Origin: Candidatus Omnitrophota bacterium
GTDB taxonomy: Bacteria; Omnitrophota; Omnitrophia; Omnitrophales; Aquincolibacteriaceae
Assembly (NCBI GenBank): GCA_016930235.1
Contig: JAFGHI010000015.1
Coordinates: 4,218-68,217, forward strand
DNA: 64,000 nucleotides
Direction of reading: 5' to 3'
A program made the translations under genes and the position numbers. Shown here in pieces: positions 2,313-45,395 of this stretch (position 1 is its first letter; every line of letters begins with the position of its first letter). The notes beneath the pieces were generated by a model. It was not told the DNA's origin and made no database searches. It saw only the letters and a program-made list of their open reading frames with translations.

Positions 2313-2660
2313 TTACTGAAGATTCGCCTTCTTCTTGCGTTCCTTTTTAAGAGAAGTTTCGACACGCCGAAGTTTATCCGCATGCCTTTTTGTCTCACCA
2401 ACCAGACGCTTGATCTTAGCATCTTTCAGCGAAACGTCACTGCTCTTCTCAGAAGCCTTATCGTAGACATAATGGCCGATTTCCGCAAACTTTTGGCTCA
2501 GTTTATGTTCTAACGTCGCTTTTTCGATAAATAGGCGCGTCACTTGTGCAGCTTCACCCGCCTTTTCCGAAAAAACTTTCGCGGATTGCTTAGCAATTTC
2601 AAAAGCCTGATTAATGGCCTTTTCTGTCTTCTCATAAAGCAATTTTCGGTCCACGGTCAT
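2313..2660 (-). CDS. Hypothetical small alpha-helical/coiled-coil protein (phasin-like composition)
   Basis: 115-aa ORF rich in K/E/A, no recognisable catalytic motif. Intact ORF between two tRNAs. Confidence 0.45.
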   Translation of the reverse strand: MTVDRKLLYEKTEKAINQAFEIAKQSAKVFSEKAGEAAQVTRLFIEKATLEHKLSQKFAEIGHYVYDKASEKSSDVSLKDAKIKRLVGETKRHADKLRRVETSLKKERKKKANLQ

Positions 2661-2805: not shown

Positions 2806-2876
2806 CTGGGGGACCTGGATTCGAACCAAGACTAAGTGGTCCAGAGCCACTTGTGCTACCATTACACTATCCCCCA
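2806..2876 (-). tRNA. tRNA-Gln (anticodon CUG), CCA not encoded
   Basis: Reverse complement TGGGGGATAGTGTAATGGTAGCACAAGTGGCTCTGGACCACTTAGTCTTGGTTCGAATCCAGGTCCCCCAG. U1:A72 pair and G73 discriminator as in bacterial tRNA-Gln. Anticodon stem AGTGG/CCACT with loop CTCTGGA. T-loop GGTTCGAATCC. Confidence 0.75.
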
Positions 2877-21418: not shown

Positions 21419-21492
21419 GCCCCTATAGCTCAAATGGATAGAGCATCTCCGTCCTAAGGAGAGGGTTGCATGTTCGAGTCATGCTGGGGGCA
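21419..21492 (+). tRNA. tRNA-Arg (anticodon CCU)
   Basis: GCCCCTATAGCTCAAATGGATAGAGCATCTCCGTCCTAAGGAGAGGGTTGCATGTTCGAGTCATGCTGGGGGCA. Acceptor GCCCCTA/TGGGGGC, anticodon stem TCTCC/GGAGA with loop GTCCTAA, T-loop TTCGAGT. Confidence 0.85.
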
Positions 21493-33096: not shown

Positions 33097-33312
33097 TCAA
33101 CGTTGAGCGTAACTGCTTAAACAGGAAGGACATAGGCAATCGGAATATTGCTCTGCCAGGCGAGTTAAGACCTCTTTCGATAAGGAGGATTGAGAACACC
33201 AACAGGGCATTGGGCTCTCATCTTGGCAAGAAAATTCACCAAGACACCTGGGACACTTCTTTTTTTTACCCATTCCGGTTTCCCCAGGCCGATCTTTTAT
33301 AATCTCTTCCAC
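33097..33312 (-). CDS. Small cysteine-rich protein (CWC-type, 8 Cys)
   Basis: 71 aa with CPRC...C..ESPMPCWC...C.CPSC spacing. Overlaps the end of the ABC ATPase gene by 16 nt, as the last gene of the uptake operon. Confidence 0.45.
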   Translation of the reverse strand: MEEIIKDRPGETGMGKKKKCPRCLGEFSCQDESPMPCWCSQSSLSKEVLTRLAEQYSDCLCPSCLSSYAQR

Positions 33313-34073
33313 GGGATCACGTAAAATTCCTGATCAAAGTGTCCGTAGCGGGCATTGATGCCGTAGCCTTCTTTCAAGTTGTCCGGAGACAAAACATCGG
33401 CAGCGGACCCGGAAGCCAGGATTTTGCCTTCCCGCAAAAGATAAAGCCGGTCGCAAAAACGGGCGGCCAGGGTCAAATCATGCAGCACCACCATCACCCC
33501 GGACCCTCGAAACGCAACGTCCTTCAACAATTGCATGACTTGGATCTGATGATTGGGGTCCAATCCCGCGACGGGTTCATCGGCCAAGATCATTTCTGAA
33601 TTCCCCGCCAAAACACGGGCAAACATTACGAGGGCTTTTTCGCCCCCTGCCAAATGATCCATCGGGCGGTCCGCCAAATGCAACACATCCGATTTTTTCA
33701 TCGCATTGTAAATGGCCTCGTAATCAATTTTCCGAAGGTCCTGCCAGGGCAAAAGATGCGGAATTCTTCCCAGGGCCACGACCCTTTGGGCCGTTAACGA
33801 CCAGGAAACAGACGCCCCTTGCGGGAGATAGGAAAAATATTGGGCAAGCCGGCGTCTATGGATTTCCGACAAAGACTGTCCTTTAACTTCAATCCTCCCT
33901 TTCTGAAAAGGAAGAAACCGAAGAAGCGTCCGCATCAAGGTCGATTTCCCCGCTCCGTTGGGGCCGATCAGGCCGATCAACTCTCCCCGGGGAAGATCCA
34001 TATTCACCTTGCTTAGGACAAGTTTCTTGTCGAGCGAAACATCCAAATCCCGAATCTGAACAAAATCTTTCAT
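33297..34073 (-). CDS. ABC transporter ATP-binding protein (BtuD/FecE-like, iron-complex/cobalamin uptake type)
   Basis: Walker A GPNGAGKST, signature LAGGEKALVMFARVL, Walker B ILADEP. 258 aa. Confidence 0.85.
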   Translation of the reverse strand: MKDFVQIRDLDVSLDKKLVLSKVNMDLPRGELIGLIGPNGAGKSTLMRTLLRFLPFQKGRIEVKGQSLSEIHRRRLAQYFSYLPQGASVSWSLTAQRVVALGRIPHLLPWQDLRKIDYEAIYNAMKKSDVLHLADRPMDHLAGGEKALVMFARVLAGNSEMILADEPVAGLDPNHQIQVMQLLKDVAFRGSGVMVVLHDLTLAARFCDRLYLLREGKILASGSAADVLSPDNLKEGYGINARYGHFDQEFYVIPWKRL

Positions 34074-35089
34074 CAGGATACGTTCCTCCGCATTTTAAAG
34101 ATAAGGGCCAGGAAAAATGGGGCCCCGATTAAGGACGTCAGGACCCCGAGCTTTAATTCCGTGCCGACCGAAAAATATCTGACGAACAAATCCGCCCAAA
34201 GAACAAGGACCGCGCCGCCCACTGCACTTATTCCCAGCAGTTTCCCGGGCTCATGTTTGACAAGGGGCCTGAACAAATGAGGAACCATCAACCCGACAAA
34301 CACCACACTCCCGCAAACAGCCGTCACGCCTCCGACAGCCAGGGCCGTCCCTAAAATAATCCGGAACCGGACCCGCTGAATGGGAATCCCTAAACTCATG
34401 GCCGCTTCTTCCCCGAGACTCAAGGCATTCAGTGCACGGCCGTCCCACAAAAGAAGTAAACATCCCAACAAAACAAAGGGAGCAACTAAAGTTAGATGAT
34501 CAAAACTGCGGTCGGTCAAAGACCCCATCTGCCAGAAAACAATTTCAAGCGCCGCATAAGGATCTTTGGAAAGATTGAGCACCAGAGACGTTCCGGCAAA
34601 GGCCAGGGTATTGATTGCGATACCCGCCAGGATAAGTGTCTGGACACTGGCCATGTACCCGGCAAAAAGATAAAGAATCAAAACCGTAAGAAAAGCACCC
34701 GCCATTCCCCCCAGCGGCAACGCCAGCGAAAAGGAAGAAGCCAACCCCGAGTAAATTACGAGGACGGCCCCCAAAACAGCCCCTCCATTCACCCCCAAAA
34801 CACCGGGCTCGGCCAGAGGATTACGTAATAATCCCTGCATCGACGCCCCTGCAAGCCCTAACGACGCCCCCAGGAAAACGGCCAATAAACTCCGGGGCAT
34901 CCGAATATCCCAAAGAATGACCACCGCCTCGGAACTTTTTCCGTGAACAATGTCGAGTGCCGTGTCCCAGAGAGAAATCTCCGAAGCCCCGGCATTGAGG
35001 GAAATCAAAAAACTCAGAAGCAAGAGAATACTCATTGAGAAAAAGAGAAAAAAGCCGGAGAATTTTGATCCAACCGCAGGTTGCTTCAT
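34073..35089 (-). CDS. FecCD-family ABC permease (BtuC-like)
   Basis: 338 aa, about 9-10 TM helices, glycine-rich. Layout typical of BtuC/FepD permeases. Stop/start overlap with the ATPase gene. Confidence 0.8.
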   Translation of the reverse strand: MKQPAVGSKFSGFFLFFSMSILLLLSFLISLNAGASEISLWDTALDIVHGKSSEAVVILWDIRMPRSLLAVFLGASLGLAGASMQGLLRNPLAEPGVLGVNGGAVLGAVLVIYSGLASSFSLALPLGGMAGAFLTVLILYLFAGYMASVQTLILAGIAINTLAFAGTSLVLNLSKDPYAALEIVFWQMGSLTDRSFDHLTLVAPFVLLGCLLLLWDGRALNALSLGEEAAMSLGIPIQRVRFRIILGTALAVGGVTAVCGSVVFVGLMVPHLFRPLVKHEPGKLLGISAVGGAVLVLWADLFVRYFSVGTELKLGVLTSLIGAPFFLALIFKMRRNVS

Positions 35090-35106
35090 GTCTTATCCCT
35101 CAACCG

Positions 35107-35976
35107 TTACCTTGAAATTCCCGATAATGCCCCTGAAATCTTTTCGACCGCCTCGACCGACCTTGGAGATCCGCAATTGAGCAAGCAGGCCGGAAGCTCA
35201 ATCACTTTAACTCCCGGCAAAGCTTTACGGATCGCCGGATGATTGAGGATATCACGTCTCTCGGTCCGCGTGTGGCGCCAAACATCCGACAAAATAATGA
35301 GGTCTGGTTGTTGGACAATCAAGGTTTCCACAGACATCAATTGATGCCCCTTGGCCCCCGTCCGGACGGCAATATTCTCCGCACCCGCCTCCGTCAAAAT
35401 CGAATGCTCAAAGGTATCTTTTCCCGGAACGCTCCCGCGGATCCCCCAGAAAACAGCCGACCGGCCGCTCTGTGGCCGAGCAATATGTCCCAGCCGTTCA
35501 TTGATTTCACGGATGATTTCCTCGCCCCGTTCTTTTTCCTGAAGGACCTCGGCCATTTGCCGGATCATGTCCCGAATCTCATCGAAATTCTTGGGGATAG
35601 GGACCGACACGACCCGAACGCCTAATTTCTCCAGAAACTGAATGGTCTGCCGCCGCGTGAAAGGCCCGGCAAAAACCAAATCGGGTTTCAAAACCATGAT
35701 CTCCTCGGCATCACCGCGAATCATCGGGATCCCTTTGACCTCGTCCGTGATGGGAGAAAAGACCTGGTCCTTTGAATAACGTGTAATCGCCACGATCCGT
35801 TCCCGATCGGCAAGCCGGATGAGGAGTTCATCGGAACAAAAATTCGCAGAAATAATCCGGGACGGTTTCAGTACCGTTTCTTCTTGGGAGGCAATCTCAA
35901 GAGACTGCGCCGAGACAATGTCCCTTCCCGAGAGAGCAAACAAAACCAGGAAGAAAAAAAACCAAACCCTTAGCAT
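35107..35976 (-). CDS. Periplasmic substrate-binding protein of the uptake system (BtuF-like)
   Basis: Signal peptide MLRVWFFFFLVLFALSGRDIVSA, then a class III SBP-like layout. Start set at MLRV. The ORF-track extension overlaps the receptor gene. Confidence 0.65.
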   Translation of the reverse strand: MLRVWFFFFLVLFALSGRDIVSAQSLEIASQEETVLKPSRIISANFCSDELLIRLADRERIVAITRYSKDQVFSPITDEVKGIPMIRGDAEEIMVLKPDLVFAGPFTRRQTIQFLEKLGVRVVSVPIPKNFDEIRDMIRQMAEVLQEKERGEEIIREINERLGHIARPQSGRSAVFWGIRGSVPGKDTFEHSILTEAGAENIAVRTGAKGHQLMSVETLIVQQPDLIILSDVWRHTRTERRDILNHPAIRKALPGVKVIELPACLLNCGSPRSVEAVEKISGALSGISR

Positions 35977-36002
35977 ACCAACCGCCTCCGGCTTTGAAAC
36001 AG

Positions 36003-38273
36003 TTAAAATTCCCAGCGTACCCCACATTGGTATTCCCGCGGAGCTCCGGGCACAACAAAGGTATACGTTCCATCGGGAAGGACCGTCGCACCGCCCCAAG
36101 CCGCTGGGAAGACTGTCGCATCCACAGCACGGGAATAATACTTGTTATTAAAAACGTTGTTCACCTTAAAATAAACCTCGAAATTTCTCCAGGAATAGGA
36201 AACGAGAAAATCCCAAACCGAATAGGCCTTGATTTGATGGCCCGCCCCGCCGGTCGCATCCAAGGTTGCCTGAGCGGTCGACTCATAAGCCAGCACGTGT
36301 TGGTCCCCGGTATAAATCCCATTGAGGGACAATTTTAAACCGTCATAAGGTTCTCCCAAACGGACCAAGGGATAAAGCGTCGTTCCCCAGGTAAAACGGT
36401 GTTCCGGGATTTGCCCCAAGTCCCGGCCGTCGATGAGACTCCCTCCCTGGTCGGTTTCCCGCACGTAAGCATCCGTGAGCGTATAAGACCCGTAAAGTGA
36501 AATCTCGTCGACTGGCTTGACGTCCAATCGCGTCTCAATCCCCGAACGCCTGCTTTTTCCGATATTAATATTCTGTCCGAAAGGCGCATTGACCGTCACC
36601 GAAGTAGAGTCCCAAACAATCTCATCCTTTAAATCAATCAGAAAGAAACTGCATTTGAAAAGCCCCATCTCTTTCGGTAAACGAATCCGGGTACCGACTT
36701 CGTAACTATCCGAGACCTCGGGACGAAGACTTGTCGAAATAGTCCCGGAGAAAGGAGACAATTCACTGATCGTCGGCACACGAAACCCCTGGCTGTAATT
36801 GCCGTAAAGATCCGTCCAAGAAAGGGGTTTGATAATCAGACCGGTTGACCAACTCGCTTCATCCCACCGGCGGCTGATATTCTGGGTCGGCATCATGGCA
36901 TCCGAGGCATTCAAGCGATATTGGTCGAGCCTCATCCCAACATGCGCGGTCACCCGTTGGGCGATCTCTCCGGTCTGGCGCCAGTAGAGTGCCCAGTTTC
37001 TCGGGTCCGAGCTCCTGTCGGTTTCGCGCGGACTGTTTTCAACGACATTTCCTCCGAAGGCATCCTGTTCCAATCCGTAATTGGAGGCGTTACGAAACTC
37101 CATCCCCAGGGTTGTTTGGTTGTGATACCAGCCCCACTCGTCCTCATAAGCAAGCTGCCAGACAAGATCGGTCGCCCTTGATTTTGTCGTCACCAGATCC
37201 GTATCGGGATTAAAAGCACCGTCGGCGAACGTAAGCGATGTCGTGTAAAAGTGAGCGAGATTGACCCGCCAGGAAGCCAAGATCGAGGCCAAAACACGGT
37301 GGTCCCAAAAATATTTATTGGCCTCCATTTGAAGGATTGTCATCCGGTAATCCCGGCCATCCAAGGGCTTTAAGGTCATTTCTTCATTGATCTGATACAA
37401 ATCGTAAGGCAGCGCCCCCGGATTGGAAACCGCATCATCCACGTGCTTCAACCCGAACCGAAAGTTCCCCTGGTCGTCGGGAAGTTCATAAGCGGTCTTG
37501 ATATTAAAGGAAGTAATCCGGTATTCCCCATTACTGCGGAAACCGTCCCCTAATTTACGGCTGCTGTTGAAATAGTAGGTCCACTTTCCCGCCAAGGGCG
37601 TTATTTTATCCTGAAGCGTCCCGCTAAATCCGTTATAGAATTGAATGCCCCGGTTGCTTGAGAATTCAAAACCTCCGAAAAGGCTCAGACGCTTTTCACT
37701 CGGCCGGCGCGTCGTCAAATGGACCACTCCGGCAAAGGCACCGCTCCCAAAAATAGGCGAAGCCGAACCGCGGTCAATTTGGATCGATTCAAGATCGCTC
37801 ATATCGATCAAGGGATAAATCACATCATCCCCGTCCACTTCATTGATACGGACCCCGTCCAAAAGATGGACGACCGCGCTCCCTTCCGAAAAACCCCGGA
37901 GACTGAACGTGCGGTCGACCCCGTTTCCGACCTGGTCATAAAAAAGGGCGCCCTCCACATCCTCGATGGACCCTTGATAATCACGCGGATGATAGGCATG
38001 AACTTCTTCGCCTTCGCGGCGCGTGACATTGGCGGGAATGTAACTTATATTGGCAGGAACATCGGCAAATGGGACTTTGAAACAAGGAAGCCGTGAAGCC
38101 ACCACCGTCACCTGATCATAGGTTAACACCCGTGATTCATCGGTCTTCAACTCGTCTGTAACTTCTGGAGTTTCTGTTGGGTTCGGTGAAGGAACCTCAG
38201 CAAAAACCGGGTACGACACACTCAAAAAAACCAAAAGCAAAAACTTACTGACTTGAAGCAACATCCTTTCCAT
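36003..38273 (-). CDS. TonB-dependent outer-membrane receptor (BtuB-like)
   Basis: Signal peptide MERMLLQVSKFLLLVFLSVSYPVFA with AAAGGAGG RBS. Plug domain, 22-strand barrel. C-terminal ...GVRWEF aromatic terminus. Preceded by cobalamin-riboswitch-like leader. Confidence 0.85.
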   Translation of the reverse strand: MERMLLQVSKFLLLVFLSVSYPVFAEVPSPNPTETPEVTDELKTDESRVLTYDQVTVVASRLPCFKVPFADVPANISYIPANVTRREGEEVHAYHPRDYQGSIEDVEGALFYDQVGNGVDRTFSLRGFSEGSAVVHLLDGVRINEVDGDDVIYPLIDMSDLESIQIDRGSASPIFGSGAFAGVVHLTTRRPSEKRLSLFGGFEFSSNRGIQFYNGFSGTLQDKITPLAGKWTYYFNSSRKLGDGFRSNGEYRITSFNIKTAYELPDDQGNFRFGLKHVDDAVSNPGALPYDLYQINEEMTLKPLDGRDYRMTILQMEANKYFWDHRVLASILASWRVNLAHFYTTSLTFADGAFNPDTDLVTTKSRATDLVWQLAYEDEWGWYHNQTTLGMEFRNASNYGLEQDAFGGNVVENSPRETDRSSDPRNWALYWRQTGEIAQRVTAHVGMRLDQYRLNASDAMMPTQNISRRWDEASWSTGLIIKPLSWTDLYGNYSQGFRVPTISELSPFSGTISTSLRPEVSDSYEVGTRIRLPKEMGLFKCSFFLIDLKDEIVWDSTSVTVNAPFGQNINIGKSRRSGIETRLDVKPVDEISLYGSYTLTDAYVRETDQGGSLIDGRDLGQIPEHRFTWGTTLYPLVRLGEPYDGLKLSLNGIYTGDQHVLAYESTAQATLDATGGAGHQIKAYSVWDFLVSYSWRNFEVYFKVNNVFNNKYYSRAVDATVFPAAWGGATVLPDGTYTFVVPGAPREYQCGVRWEF

Positions 38274-38494
38274 CTCTCCTCCTTTACCCGCGTAAAGAGA
38301 CCCTAGGGGTTCTAGGATCTGTTTCCTTGAAAAGAGCGAGATCTTCTGGCTTGTGGCAACAGTCGCAATCACCTACTTGCAGCACCTTCCCAACAAAATA
38401 AGTTAAAAGTAAAAAGTCAAAAATTAAAACTATCGAAAATCATTTTCTTAACCCGTAACTCGCTTTTGACTTTTGATTTATTACTTCTAACTTT

Positions 38495-38575
38495 TAAGTC
38501 AGTGGTCTTCGGCTGCTTTCGTTCCACGTACAGCTGCGGGGCAGCGGCGGCTCATCCGCCTTCCCTCCACTCTCA
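38495..38575 (-). promoter_or_regulatory. Second, compact cobalamin-riboswitch-like aptamer (copy 2) in the receptor leader
   Basis: Minus RNA GAGUGGAGGGAAGGCGGAUGAGCCGCCGCUGCCCCGCAGCUGUACGUGGAACGAAAGCAGCCGAAGACCACUGAC. Contains AGGGAAG, GCUGCCCCGCAGCUGUA (core GCC-CCCGC-ACUGU), a B12-box-like AGCCGAAGACC and CCACUG. Shares the CCGCCGCUG...ACGAAAGC...ACCACUG backbone with copy 1. Confidence 0.45.
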
Positions 38576-38595
38576 AGTTTTGATTGTGAACGAAC

Positions 38596-38646
38596 AAAAA
38601 AAATCCCTTTGAGCAAGTTCCGAGGAGAATACGCTGCTCAAAGGGA
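38596..38646 (-). terminator. Intrinsic terminator (probable riboswitch expression platform)
   Basis: Minus RNA UCCCUUUGAGCA-19 nt loop-UGCUCAAAGGGA (12-bp stem) followed by UUUUUUUU. About 55 nt downstream of the B12 box of copy 1. Confidence 0.7.
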
Positions 38647-38699
38647 AAACACTTCCTAAGCTTTTTTCAATCCTCTGCTCGGAGGCTCAATCTTTCATG

Positions 38700-38900
38700 T
38701 TGATGAGGGTAGGTCTTCTGACTGACGAGCGTTCGTATCCTACTTACGAACCTTCCCACCCGCCAAAACTGAGGCAGGCAGTGGTTAATTTCGCTTTCGT
38801 TCTCGTCGACAGCGGCGGCACCGTGGAGTCAATTGCACACAGCAATTGCTCGCTTCCCTATGAAGTTCGAAATCCCTTTCGAACACCCACACCGTTTAAG
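38700..38900 (-). promoter_or_regulatory. Cobalamin (B12) riboswitch-like aptamer (copy 1)
   Basis: Minus RNA contains, in canonical order: AUAGGGAAGCGAGC, GGUGCCGCCGCUGUCGA, ACCACUGCC, GGUGGGAAGG, and the B12 box AGUCAGAAGACCUACC (consensus AGYCMGGAGACCKGCC, 2 mismatches). No ORF on either strand. Confidence 0.6.
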
Positions 38901-38923
38901 AAAGAACATTCAATAGTGGAGTC

Positions 38924-38951
38924 ATTATAGAAAAAAGAGGGGGCTTGTAAA
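38924..38951 (-). promoter_or_regulatory. Candidate sigma-70 promoter of the riboswitch-regulated uptake operon
   Basis: Minus strand TTTACA-16 nt-TATAAT immediately upstream of the riboswitch region. Confidence 0.45.
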
Positions 38952-38983
38952 GATGATTTTTGAAGAAAAGGAAAACAAGACAA

Positions 38984-39559
38984 TTACATGCTGAGGATAA
39001 TTTCTTCGCCGGACTGCTCAAGGATGACCGAACGTCCCTGAATATCTTTGACTACCGTATCTTGGTTCACCTCATCCCCGATCATGTAAATACGGTTATT
39101 GATGAGCGCCAGTTGCCTGCCCGCGGAAGTCGTAATCCCGCTCAAAACATATTTGCTCGTCCGCGGCCTAACAACGACGGGCTCAAATGATTCTCTTAGG
39201 ACGGGCTGTTTGGGAGCGGTCACGGCCGGCTTGGGGGCCCGCTGGAAGTTTTCCATCATGACCGTCGTTGCAATCACCATCGCCCCGAGCACCATCACAC
39301 TGACCAGCACAATGCAACAAACAACAACGGCCTTCATGAGATTTTTTTTCGTCCGGGAATCCAGAACCGGAGCACGATAAGGGCGATGCGTTTCTCTAAT
39401 CTCCTTGTGGAAATCAAACGGCGGCTTGGGTTCAGGTTTCGGCACAACCCGCTTCGGTAGTTCTTTCTGTTTCGGCGGCGGCTCCATCACGGAAGTGGCC
39501 GCACTCAAATCCTGAGGCAACCGTCCCGTCTTTTCAAGCGCCTGCTGGATGAGACTCAT
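38984..39559 (-). CDS. GspB/ExeB-like protein (partner of ExeA-type ATPase). Proline-rich linker, single TM, C-terminal T2SSB-like domain.
   Basis: 191 aa. PKPEPKPP linker, TM VVVCCIVLVSVMVLGAMVIA, C-terminus LSGITTSAGRQLALINNRIYMIGDEVNQDTVVKDIQGRSVILEQSGEEIIL. Its start overlaps the ExeA-like stop by 4 nt. Confidence 0.5.
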   Translation of the reverse strand: MSLIQQALEKTGRLPQDLSAATSVMEPPPKQKELPKRVVPKPEPKPPFDFHKEIRETHRPYRAPVLDSRTKKNLMKAVVVCCIVLVSVMVLGAMVIATTVMMENFQRAPKPAVTAPKQPVLRESFEPVVVRPRTSKYVLSGITTSAGRQLALINNRIYMIGDEVNQDTVVKDIQGRSVILEQSGEEIILSM

Positions 39560-40365
39560 ACATGAACTCCTTCAAGATCGGCTTGGGCACATTCCACCAT
39601 CTGCTGCGTCACCACCGTTGAATTTTGAGTGAATGCCGCCATCAGGGCACGATCGGCCAAGACATTGATCACACGCGGGATTCCGGAGGACAAATGATAA
39701 ATAAGCTCACCCGCTTCTTCGGAAAAAAAGTTTCGTTCCGCACCCGCAACCGTAAGCCGGTGAGCAATATAATTTCTGACATCCTCCCGTGAAAGCTCAG
39801 GCAAATGATAGCGGATCGTGATCCTCTGGCGAAGCTGTTTTAAACAAGGACGGTTTAAAAGATCTTTGAGTTCGGGCTGGCCCACTAAAATAATTTGAAG
39901 CAATTTATGAATCGGCGTCTCGAGATTGGATAAAAGACGGACCTGCTCCAGGGCCTTCGGGCTCAAAAGCTGGCATTCGTCAATAATCGCCACCGCATTA
40001 AACCCCTTCTGCGACTCTTCAATCAGAAAATTGTTGAGGGCATCAAAATAATGCTTTCGTTTCTTCCCCGGAGGCGTGATGCCAAAATCCTCGACAATGG
40101 CCTGCAAGACCTCAAACTCCGAAAGCCTGGGATTGAAAAGCAAGGAGGTATGCGCCTTGCCTTCCAACTTATTGAGGAGTGTCCGGCAAATCGTTGTCTT
40201 CCCGGCCCCGATCTCCCCTGTAATCTGAATAAATCCCCTGCGGCTCTCGACCCCGTAAAGAAGATTGGACAGGGCCTCCAAGTGATGCCGGCTAAAATAG
40301 ACAAACCGTGGGTCCGGCGTCATGTTGAAGGGAGATTCTCTCAATCCAAAGAAATTCTCGTACAT
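39556..40365 (-). CDS. ExeA/GspA/MshM-like AAA ATPase (short form, no peptidoglycan-binding domain)
   Basis: Walker A GEIGAGKTT, Walker B AIIDECQ. N-terminal FGLRESPFNMTPDPRFVYFSRHHLEAL is characteristic of ExeA-family ATPases. Confidence 0.75.
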   Translation of the reverse strand: MYENFFGLRESPFNMTPDPRFVYFSRHHLEALSNLLYGVESRRGFIQITGEIGAGKTTICRTLLNKLEGKAHTSLLFNPRLSEFEVLQAIVEDFGITPPGKKRKHYFDALNNFLIEESQKGFNAVAIIDECQLLSPKALEQVRLLSNLETPIHKLLQIILVGQPELKDLLNRPCLKQLRQRITIRYHLPELSREDVRNYIAHRLTVAGAERNFFSEEAGELIYHLSSGIPRVINVLADRALMAAFTQNSTVVTQQMVECAQADLEGVHV

Positions 40366-45013: not shown

Positions 45014-45097
45014 ACTGCGGAGGGAGAGAGTCGAACTCTCACGGCCTTGCGGCCACTGGATTTTGAGTCCAGCGCGTCTGCCAGTTCCGCCACCCCC
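45014..45097 (-). tRNA. tRNA-Leu (anticodon CAA), class II
   Basis: Reverse complement GCGGGGGTGGCGGAACTGGCAGACGCGCTGGACTCAAAATCCAGTGGCCGCAAGGCCGTGAGAGTTCGACTCTCTCCCTCCGCA. Anticodon stem CTGGA/TCCAG with loop CTCAAAA, long variable arm, T-loop GTTCGACTC. Confidence 0.85.
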
Positions 45098-45124
45098 GCA
45101 AATCACAGGTAAGAATAAAAAAAC

Positions 45125-45197
45125 TTGGACCGGAGGGGAGTTGAACCCCTGACCTCCACAATGCCATTGTGGCGTTCTCCCAACTGAACTACCGGCC
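45125..45197 (-). tRNA. tRNA-Ala (anticodon GGC)
   Basis: Reverse complement GGGCCGGTAGTTCAGTTGGGAGAACGCCACAATGGCATTGTGGAGGTCAGGGGTTCAACTCCCCTCCGGTCCA. G3:U70 identity pair present. Anticodon stem CCACA/TGTGG with loop ATGGCAT. Confidence 0.85.
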
Positions 45198-45395
45198 CAC
45201 GTAAGAAATTATACCAAAGCAAACTTTATACAGGCAGTGTCTACCGTCAAAACCACTTACCAAAACATCGCAGTCCTGCAAAGTTCCTGAGGAACGAAGC
45301 AGGACCGGCCCATGAATGAATTGCAGGGTATCTTAATCAAAAGCGGGTATCGAGACAAGGATTAAGTAATGAAAAACCCTGAAGAATATTCCCAT

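Follow-up and report, generated by a model that had tools for sequence, protein, structure and literature searches.

Two cobalamin aptamers upstream of a B12-uptake operon

The window analysed here, a 64,000-nucleotide stretch of a Candidatus Omnitrophota contig (JAFGHI010000015.1), contains on its minus strand a predicted operon encoding a TonB-dependent receptor and a BtuFCD-like transporter. The receptor matches generic TonB-dependent NCBIfam families best and BtuB models only weakly, the permease matches BtuC (6.5e-60) and the ATPase the corrinoid/heme type, and every match in the operon, the receptor's included, falls below the curated cut-offs; an identical protein on record is annotated from a Candidatus Omnitrophica MAG. 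Judged by these families, the operon directly downstream of the leader is of the B12-uptake type.

A scan with the Rfam model RF00174 reveals two full-length cobalamin aptamers on the minus strand ahead of the receptor gene (Table 1), each aligned to positions 1–189 of the 189 in the model, with scores of 62.3 bits for copy 1 and 52.4 bits for copy 2 against a gathering score of 31.5 bits. Copy 2 scores the lower of the two, but at 21 bits above the threshold and with an E value of 3.5e-10 (whole window, all families) its match is far beyond chance, and the second cobalamin aptamer that a sequence-only reading had placed after the terminator is confirmed. The two matches are separated by 88 nt, and the interval holds only a 32-codon open reading frame of doubtful meaning. 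PMC9481103 defines same-ligand tandems by two complete aptamers for a single class of ligand that have a gap of less than 300 nt and no gene between them, and by these covariance-model matches the leader is a genuine cobalamin-aptamer tandem. Both copies also align across model positions ~90–150, CCACUG and GGGAAGG included, and the P6 peripheral extension (the CCACUG ... GGGAAGG domain) that marks class I, AdoCbl-type, aptamers as distinct from class II, AqCbl/MeCbl-type, ones is present in each, making both candidate class I aptamers by sequence.

A sigma-70-like promoter matching the consensus at 11 of 12 positions lies upstream of copy 1, and relatives have similar TTTAC-/TATAAT boxes ahead of their single aptamer. 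A crude consensus scan for sigma-70-type sites across 38200–39050 turned up no other promoter-like site, and in particular no second candidate between the units.

Table 1. Predicted features of the tandem leader and its operon, in window coordinates.
Feature	Position	Strand	Basis or detail
Sigma-70-like promoter, TTTACA-16 nt-TATAAT	38924..38951	minus	Consensus scan
Riboswitch 1 aptamer, peripherally extended, type A leader lineage	38691..38905	minus	RF00174
L5 of riboswitch 1, UGCCG	38820-38816	minus	Within aptamer 1
B12 box of riboswitch 1, AGUCAGAAGACCUACC	38723-38708	minus	Within aptamer 1
P13/L13 hairpin of riboswitch 1, CCUC-CGAGCA-GAGG	38672..38685	minus	Loop 38681-38676; predicted to kiss L5 UGCCG
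Intrinsic terminator of riboswitch 1	38596..38645	minus	Fold; CCCUUUGAGCAG (38645-38634) with CUUGCUCAAAGGG (38617-38605), then U8 (38603-38596)
Riboswitch 2 aptamer, type B leader lineage	38319..38602	minus	RF00174; homology to type B leaders
32-codon ORF, UUG start	38499..38597	minus	ORF list
P1 of copy 2 (manual), CUUGAGAG with CUCUUUUCAAG	38577-38570 with 38336-38326	minus	Comparison with type B leaders
L5 of riboswitch 2, CCCCG	38541-38537	minus	Within aptamer 2
AT-rich lineage-specific insertion, ~99 nt, between CCACUG and GGGAAGG	38397..38495	minus	Model alignment
B12 box of riboswitch 2, AGCCAGAAGAUCUC	38351-38338	minus	Model alignment
Extra hairpin AGAUCCUAG-AACCC-CUAGGGUCU, separating aptamer 2 from its P13 hairpin	38298..38320	minus	Predicted in all folds
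P13/L13 hairpin of riboswitch 2, CUUUA-CGCGGG-UAAAG (38297-38282)	38278..38297	minus	Fold and type B homology; loop 38292-38287
Regulated operon, TonB-dependent receptor and BtuFCD-like	33297..38273	minus	NCBIfam
TonB-dependent receptor	38273-36003	minus	NCBIfam
BtuF-like binding protein	~35976-35107	minus	NCBIfam
BtuC-like permease	35089-34073	minus	NCBIfam
ATPase	34073-33297	minus	NCBIfam

Structure of the second aptamer

The motifs originally quoted for copy 2 are all found on the minus strand, with AGGGAAGG at 38566-38559, GCUGCCCCGCAGCUGUA at 38545-38529, AGCCGAAGACC and CCACUG at 38514-38499, and GGGAAGG at 38391-38385, followed by AGCCAGAAGAUCUC. The model alignment redraws the element that they compose. 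Copy 2 had been described as compact (38495-38575), followed by an AT-rich spacer and a separate B12-box-like segment, but the model match runs the full distance given in Table 1 and both of these pieces lie inside it. AGCCGAAGACC is the strand just before CCACUG rather than a B12 box, and the true box is AGCCAGAAGAUCUC, which differs from the consensus AGCCAGGAGACCUG by one C-to-U change that retains a G-U pair. The 'CCGCCGCUG' backbone supposedly shared by the two copies is out of register, corresponding to the L5/P5 region in copy 1 and to the P4 3′ strand in copy 2.

All of the core motifs of copy 2 are intact, namely GGGAA, L5, CAGCUGUA, GAACGAAAGC, CCACUG, GGGAAGG, AGUAGG and the B12 box, and CUGUA, which is listed among the conserved core motifs tested, is present in the model alignment. 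In the Rfam alignment of copy 2 eight positions are deleted and P1 is left unpaired; comparison with related leaders of the type described below as type B yields a P1 by hand, and a P1-to-P1 extent of ~38577-38326. In the thermodynamic fold the same flanking strands pair together and close aptamer 2, and relative to type B the pairing CUUAAG/CUUAAG has become CUUGAG/UUCAAG, with one compensatory pair.

The 99-nt insertion folds as one long imperfect hairpin (−23.6 kcal/mol) that lengthens the peripheral stem of aptamer 2, at a site occupied by a loop of only 8–30 nt in type B relatives. Its position inside the aptamer in the model alignment rules out a spacer, and a multi-copy mobile element is ruled out by BLAST, which recovered no further copy from the window or from 93 loci. 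One relative, L007, has a large insertion at the same peripheral loop, with a short resemblance to the 99-nt segment by eye that BLAST does not support. P3 of copy 2 uses G-U pairs (GAUCUC in place of GACCUC) and its L4 lacks 2 nt relative to the type B consensus GGUGAAAAUCC; taken with the insertion and the P1 that the Rfam model leaves unpaired, these features give copy 2 a somewhat eroded look.

Expression platforms and kissing loops

Aptamer 1 is followed by a hairpin of the form cuc-CG(N)GCA-gag, conserved among the tabulated type A relatives, and then by the terminator that had been proposed to separate the aptamers, a hairpin of −22.0 kcal/mol with eight U residues, which has a homologous counterpart in type A relatives. 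A competing antiterminator pairs 38690-38666, P13 included, with 38629-38609. The two folds of the platform are nearly isoenergetic, at −31.1 kcal/mol with the terminator and −29.1 kcal/mol with the antiterminator, and for a nascent transcript ending at 38612 the minimum-energy fold is the antiterminator.

The hairpin reported downstream of copy 2, written as CUUUAC-GCGG-GUAAAG and followed by GGAGG and the ATG at 38273, is present as quoted, and its overlap with the Shine-Dalgarno sequence is borne out by the fold: the 3′ arm runs into GGAGG (38282-38278), ahead of the AUG at 38273-38271. A hairpin of the form cuuua-CG(NN)GGG-uaaag-GAG, with its loop also conserved, precedes the AUG in 8/8 type B leaders. 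At −5.7 kcal/mol the structure is weak, and of GGAGG it sequesters just the first G; a further part of GGAGG is paired only in a form with a bulged extension, at −6.7 kcal/mol. Folding of platform 2 in isolation allows the P1 3′ strand CUCUUUUC to pair with GAGGAGAG across the Shine-Dalgarno sequence, and this pairing would argue for a different, even opposite, switching logic. Type B relatives lack the extra hairpin that follows aptamer 2, and it is probably a spacer; this palindromic hairpin has no minus-strand U-tract behind it and was not flagged in the terminator scan of that strand, and it is rejected as a terminator after unit 2. In silico, the leader has the arrangement expected of a bi-mechanism tandem, with a terminator after unit 1 and a hairpin overlapping the Shine-Dalgarno sequence after unit 2.

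Each platform contains a candidate kissing-loop partner for the L5 of its own aptamer. In unit 2, with the register set by hand, CCCCG is complementary to the CG(C)GGG of the P13 loop, and across the three leader types the L5/L13 pairs are UGCCG/CG-N-GCA, UCCCG/CG-U-GGA and CCCCG/CG-N(N)-GGG. Two of the five pairs are changed on both sides among 13 distinct leaders, a covariation that comes from only three loop types and represents about two independent changes. Among the same 13 leaders 98.5% of the cells are paired, compared with 37–62% when the partner is slid; these counts are biased towards the model, in that MAFFT mis-registered the 2-nt bulges when L5 and L13 segments were aligned, and the bulge bases were removed and the register, with its bulge of 1–2 nt, fixed by hand. 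Two leaders, L019 and L046, fit the kissing-loop model poorly. By inspection, the L5 of either unit has two mismatches with the L13 of the other, so the two loop pairs appear to be mutually incompatible, and because of this incompatibility each aptamer is predicted to communicate only with its own platform.

Ancestry of the two units

The loci used for conservation include one true ortholog, from a scan of genome contigs, seven obtained through protein look-ups and 78 from metagenomes. Copy 1 is 80–86% identical to the aptamers of one class of leader in other Omnitrophota, which we call type A, and copy 2 is 77–79% identical to those of a second class in other genomes, type B; homology to copy 2 is seen in L020-23, L027, L029, L031, L036 and L045. 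Between the two copies identity is only 68%. Their expression platforms follow type A and type B respectively. The local duplication that had been suggested from the sequence is ruled out, as the copies are not each other's closest relatives and their platforms are homologous to two leader types; by these comparisons the tandem is built from two different leader lineages.

A trace of this ancestry may persist between the units, where the UUG of the 32-codon open reading frame stands at the site at which type A relatives start the receptor. The relatives have GAAAGGG-U7-AUG/GUG at this point, and the window has a remnant Shine-Dalgarno sequence, AAAGGGA, plus 6 nt. The frame crosses the 5′ half of aptamer 2, and by our own estimate the random chance of an open frame this long is ~20%; it is probably a relic.

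The tandem is known from one contig, and the same arrangement was not found in a second genome. An Rfam scan of 28 orthologous loci gives one aptamer in 21 and none in seven, with two in none of them, and a loose B12-box pattern applied to 93 loci gives at most one upstream box in each.

A model for regulation and its alternatives

We favor as likely the interpretation that two complete, independently acting corrinoid OFF riboswitches lie in series behind one promoter in the leader of the receptor/btuFCD-like operon. The analysis shows the two aptamers with their platforms, the covarying complementarity of the loops and the separate descent of the units; we infer that both units bind ligand, are carried on one transcript, regulate in the OFF direction and act independently. 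Riboswitch 1 probably stops transcription and riboswitch 2 probably blocks translation, a division of labour already raised in the sequence-only reading; it is the best reading because there is a terminator between the aptamers, the sole promoter-like site lies upstream, and a hairpin overlaps the Shine-Dalgarno sequence. When unit 1 binds corrinoid, its L5 (UGCCG) would kiss the CG(A)GCA loop of P13; this would lock P13 and keep its sequence from forming the antiterminator with the terminator loop and 3′ arm, so that the terminator would form and transcription would stop at the U8 near 38596. Unit 2 would be carried on read-through transcripts, and on binding corrinoid its L5 (CCCCG) would kiss the CG(C)GGG loop of the second P13 hairpin; since the 3′ arm of this hairpin extends into the Shine-Dalgarno sequence, initiation of receptor translation would be blocked. 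The predicted net effect is that one class of ligand is checked twice in succession, giving a steeper dose response and control of mRNAs that have already been made. A more elaborate version, which we regard as quite improbable, is that the two aptamer subtypes differ in corrinoid preference or affinity and form a recent chimera with orthogonal loop addresses (UGCCG/CG-N-GCA and CCCCG/CG-N-GGG) that would integrate two cobamide signals or thresholds on two time scales, with translation of the relic open reading frame perhaps coupling the decisions.

It is conceivable, if unlikely, that only riboswitch 1 functions and that copy 2, brought in with a type B leader by recombination, is a relic in decay, serving now just as a lengthy, structured 5′ UTR whose Shine-Dalgarno hairpin is constitutive. 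The signs of erosion described above and the lower score are consistent with such decay, related leaders of this operon gain hairpin insertions freely, and the lack of two aptamers at any of the 28 scanned loci gives no evident long-term advantage to a tandem in this family. However, copy 2 still clears the family threshold by a wide margin, its core motifs are all intact, its P1 has been kept through a compensatory pair and its L5/L13 complementarity has been kept (CCCCG with CG-C-GGG), and the L007 aptamer with a large insertion at the same loop is the sole aptamer of its leader and is therefore presumed functional.

We consider it very unlikely that the units are coupled, whether through translation of the open reading frame (38597-38499) from the remnant Shine-Dalgarno sequence and UUG, which would unfold unit 2 on read-through and keep the receptor Shine-Dalgarno sequence open, or through a terminated unit 1 RNA of ~320 nt acting as a corrinoid-sensing small RNA. 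The frame does start exactly at the type A receptor start position with the same Shine-Dalgarno geometry, and PMC11260477 reports interplay between uORF translation and B12 riboswitches in M. tuberculosis; against this, such a frame would arise by chance about once in five, UUG is weak as a start codon, the arrangement is absent from the relatives, and nothing points to a trans target for the terminated RNA. An assembly artefact, joining a strain with a type A leader to one with a type B leader, seems scarcely credible. Both leader types do occur singly in related populations, and the tandem lies on a single metagenome-assembled contig, with no independent assembly of the window's own receptor on record. 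A false join would nonetheless need a repeat shared at the junction, and the units are ~68% identical with no long exact match; two complete units follow each other cleanly head to tail before one intact ORF, and the junction consists of the U-tract and then UUGUUCGUUCACAAUCAAAAC, resembling the 5′ start of type B leaders L029 and L031.

Relation to known riboswitch systems

The earlier description of tandem arrangements as uncommon is reasonable, yet this one has precedents: PMC9481103 counts 26 tandem AdoCbl doublets (Sudarsan et al. 2006, as cited there), and a layout with a terminator followed by ribosome-binding-site control is also published. The doublets resemble the present leader in having two complete cobalamin-class riboswitches in one leader, each with its own platform, with no intervening gene and a gap of less than 300 nt. 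The units here appear to differ in belonging to distinct leader sub-lineages rather than being near-identical repeats, and in having different platforms, a terminator and then a ribosome-binding-site hairpin; the leader comes from an uncultured member of the Omnitrophota and precedes a TonB-dependent receptor/BtuFCD operon. PMC9481103 also presents SAM-II followed by SAM-V, and mixed-platform SAM-II doublets, as bi-mechanism tandems, and states that its own assessment of tandems for this property was not comprehensive. In those tandems, too, both aptamers sense the same ligand; ligand and fold differ from ours, and here both aptamers belong to one Rfam family.

If both units work, this leader would exemplify in nature a "bi-mechanism" doublet of the cobalamin class; documented examples of this layout have mainly been SAM riboswitches. 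It would also be a clear instance of a tandem formed when two diverged leaders were joined, rather than through duplication. What is currently understood about cobalamin riboswitches is unchanged by it. The covarying, incompatible L5/L13 pairs suggest that aptamers of the same class could operate on one RNA without cross-talk, which would be useful for riboswitch engineering, and the arrangement fits tight control of B12 scavenging in Omnitrophota.

The individual units have close parallels. In the P. megaterium metE corrinoid riboswitch a model involving the kissing loop, P13 and antiterminator versus terminator has been validated by mutation (PMC10327014), and unit 1 is predicted to behave alike, with L5 kissing L13, P13 competing with the antiterminator, and locked P13 leading to the terminator. 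It differs in that L5 is UGCCG and not the consensus UCCCG, L13 has a one-nucleotide bulge, and the predicted antiterminator pairs P13 and upstream bases with the terminator loop and 3′ arm rather than the 5′ arm. Unit 2 is predicted to resemble E. coli btuB and env8HyCbl, which control translation through a hairpin that holds the ribosome-binding site (PMC10327014), with the kissing loop stabilising that hairpin. The L13 bulge is common to unit 2 and env8HyCbl, and an outer-membrane B12-uptake receptor is the target both here and in E. coli btuB, whereas unit 2 differs from both systems in its CCCCG L5, in its full peripheral extension with the 99-nt insertion, and in its position downstream of another complete riboswitch.

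Two full-length cobalamin aptamers in one leader

Comparison of the whole window with all Rfam families gives two full-length matches to the cobalamin model RF00174 (gathering score 31.5) in the leader, with copy 1, the upstream aptamer, scoring 62.3 bits (E = 5e-13) and copy 2, the downstream one, 52.4 bits (E = 3.5e-10). The second aptamer proposed by the sequence-only reading is therefore present, above the gathering score and complete. The compact copy 2 (38495-38575), AT-rich spacer and separate B12-box-like segment described there are parts of a single aptamer, spanned by one match; its B12 box is AGCCAGAAGAUCUC and not AGCCGAAGACC, and while CCGCCGCUG does occur in both copies, the model alignment places it in different structural elements of each. 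The same alignment reveals a 99-nt insertion in a peripheral hairpin of copy 2, between CCACUG and GGGAAGG, which is predicted to fold as one long imperfect hairpin (-23.6 kcal/mol) and is not repeated elsewhere in the window or among 93 related loci. Copy 2 looks partly eroded, to judge from this insertion, G-U pairs in P3, a shortened L4 and a P1 that emerges only from manual comparison and thermodynamic folding.

Features of the leader, its operon and related leaders (locus prefix L, orthologous receptor loci with their own coordinates)
Feature	Position	Strand	Remarks
Sigma-70-like promoter	38951-38924	-	TTTACA-16-TATAAT; upstream of copy 1
Aptamer, copy 1	38905-38691	-	RF00174
P13 hairpin	38685-38672	-	CCUC-CGAGCA-GAGG; after aptamer 1
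Terminator	38645-38596	-	CCCUUUGAGCAG...CUUGCUCAAAGGG + U8; hairpin -22.0 kcal/mol; after aptamer 1
Aptamer, copy 2	38602-38319	-	RF00174
32-codon ORF	38597-38499	-	UUG start
B12 box, copy 2	38351-38338	-	
Extra hairpin	38320-38298	-	first element after aptamer 2
SD hairpin	38297-38282	-	CUUUA-CGCGGG-UAAAG; -5.7 kcal/mol; then GGAGG, then AUG at 38273
TonB-dependent receptor	38273-36003	-	first gene downstream of leader; NCBIfam
BtuF-like binding protein	downstream of leader	-	NCBIfam
BtuC-like permease	downstream of leader	-	NCBIfam
ATPase, corrinoid-ATPase similarity	downstream of leader	-	NCBIfam
Terminator arm as SD (examples)	L001:2835-2856; L013:2437-2452; L014:2478-2495; L015:2487-2503; L007:2485-2503		type A
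Second CG(N)GC(A/U) hairpin	L001:2858-2878; L013:~2452-2472; L014:~2496-2516		after start codon; also in L007, L008, L010, L015, L030, L032, L034, L035, L037, L039
Leader insertions	L007:2243-2345; L010:2198-2320; L008:2140-2280; L029:1130-1245 and 1390-1480; L001:2925-2990; L034		

Origin of the doublet

Among the leaders of orthologous receptors (44-65% identity), gathered from genomes and metagenomes, those with a single aptamer can be sorted into types. Type A leaders have a core ...CUCCACGGUGCCGCCGCUGUCG... followed by a hairpin cuc-CG(N)GCA-gag; type B leaders have a core ...ACUGCCCCGCAGCUGU(A/G)AGUGGAACGAAAGC... and a hairpin cuuua-CG(NN)GGG-uaaag-GAG immediately before the AUG; and a minor type, A', has UCCCG as L5. 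In the window, copy 1 and its platform belong to type A, and copy 2 and its platform to type B; the 5′ flank of copy 2, UUGUUCGUUCACAAUCAAAAC, is also similar to the 5′ ends of type B leaders, for example those of L029 and L031. Across conserved blocks, identity to type A aptamers of other genomes is 80-86% for copy 1, identity to type B aptamers is 77-79% for copy 2, and the two copies share only 68%; the doublet is therefore not the local duplication suggested earlier. In a rough neighbour-joining tree the window's receptor nests within the type-A-led clade, beside L007; we therefore infer, as the simplest history, insertion of a type B unit between the ORF and a type A terminator.

Among 28 orthologous loci scanned with Rfam, 21 have exactly one cobalamin aptamer, seven have none and none has two; with a loose B12-box pattern, none of 93 loci shows more than one upstream box. 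Four leaders (L028, L030, L032 and L037) are clearly of type A in their aptamer sequence, with the L5 region and P13 hairpin in all and the B12-box variant AGUCAGAAUAUC in three, yet give no RF00174 match at the gathering threshold, so that the scan undercounts single aptamers in this family.

Kissing loops and expression platforms

In cobalamin riboswitches a corrinoid-dependent L5-L13 kissing loop stabilises P13, favouring the terminator in P. megaterium metE and the RBS hairpin in E. coli btuB and env8; L13 of env8 is bulged, and L5 has the consensus UCCCG (PMC10327014). The L5/L13 pairs here are UGCCG/CG-N-GCA in type A, copy 1 included, CCCCG/CG-N(N)-GGG in type B, copy 2 included, and UCCCG/CG-U-GGA in L024 and L047. 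Once the bulge is taken out and the alignment register chosen by hand, 98.5% of positions in the five loop pairs are paired among 13 distinct leaders. Two of the five show two-sided changes (U-A to C-G; G-C to C-G), and only about two independent changes underlie the covariation. Shifting the partner by 1-3 columns lowers pairing of the 12-pair structure (P5, kissing loop and P13 stem) from 98.1% to 37-62%; the fit is poor for L019 and L046. Inspection shows two mismatched positions when L5 of either window unit is set against L13 of the other, and the units thus look insulated from each other.

The predicted folds of platform 1 are nearly isoenergetic (terminator -31.1 versus antiterminator -29.1 kcal/mol). 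In the predicted antiterminator, 38690-38666, including the P13 hairpin, pairs with the loop and 3′ arm of the terminator, and this fold has the lowest energy in the nascent RNA until that arm is completed. The SD hairpin of platform 2 is weak, and when the platform is folded in isolation the P1 3′ strand can alternatively pair with the SD. The 32-codon ORF begins exactly at the receptor start position of relatives and crosses the 5′ half of aptamer 2. The ancestral start may have left it behind as a relic; alternatively, it may be a uORF whose translation could unfold aptamer 2.

Most likely, both units are carried on one transcript, on which corrinoid bound to unit 1 would terminate transcription and corrinoid bound to unit 2 would block the SD of read-through RNAs. 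This corresponds to the "pseudo-cooperative / bi-mechanism" logic of tandem riboswitches (PMC9481103). Both doublet and layout are already known: reports of tandem AdoCbl riboswitches date back to 2006, a 2022 count gave 26 AdoCbl doublets, and SAM-II/SAM-V tandems are described as having a terminator-then-RBS layout, the review authors stating that not every tandem was evaluated for this property (PMC9481103). The window doublet is therefore a further example of a described arrangement, with modest added interest in two respects: it is a chimera of two leader lineages, and its kissing-loop pairs look orthogonal.

Variation among related leaders

In many type A leaders the terminator 3′ arm, GAAAGGG(G), doubles as the SD, with AUG or GUG directly after the U-tract, and one hairpin would then control both transcription and translation; L008 and L010 end in an SD hairpin instead of a terminator. 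Type A leaders also have another hairpin, a few bases past the start codon, whose loop is again CG(N)GC(A/U) (e.g. ccggaa-CGAGCGA-uuccgg) and whose stems vary among loci with pairing kept; the window's receptor gene has no such hairpin. The resulting RNA-level constraint probably explains the conserved receptor N-terminus, MxGNAxF, and the hairpin could be a second kissing-loop partner through which the same aptamer controls translation too.

L024 (~1120-1330) and L047 (~1110-1320) have one aptamer, a P13 hairpin, a strong terminator, ~100 nt without an aptamer and a type-B-like SD hairpin (CUUUA-CGCAAGA-UAAAGGAGG), which is the window's layout minus aptamer 2 and suggests either that modules were shuffled or that a second aptamer was lost. 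Lineage-specific hairpin insertions are abundant, including a ~100-nt AT-rich one in L007, in the same loop as in copy 2, a ~60-nt tandem repeat within the aptamer periphery of L010, and palindromic GUCAU(U/C)CCCGCG..GCGGG(A/G)AUCC elements in L029, L001 and L034. Ahead of the aptamer, every leader type has a short motif, UG(U/A)UCUUU(C/G)AA, at the 5′ ends of most related leaders; its spacing is roughly constant relative to P1 but not to the promoter, and versions of it occur in both window units (UGUUCUUUC, 38908-38900; UUGUUCGUUCAC, 38597-38586; minus strand).

Operon and surroundings

The NCBIfam matches of all four downstream genes fall below curated cut-offs, and a role in B12 uptake thus rests on the riboswitches and on the BtuC and corrinoid-ATPase similarity. 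No sigma-70-like promoter other than that upstream of copy 1 was found in 38200-39050. A protein identical to the receptor is on record from a Candidatus Omnitrophica MAG. Ordinary features include an XrtA/PEP-CTERM-associated ATPase homologue just upstream of the leader (39556-40365, minus) and five tRNA genes (45016-45198, 2218-2299, 2806-2876 (-), 21419-21492 (+)).
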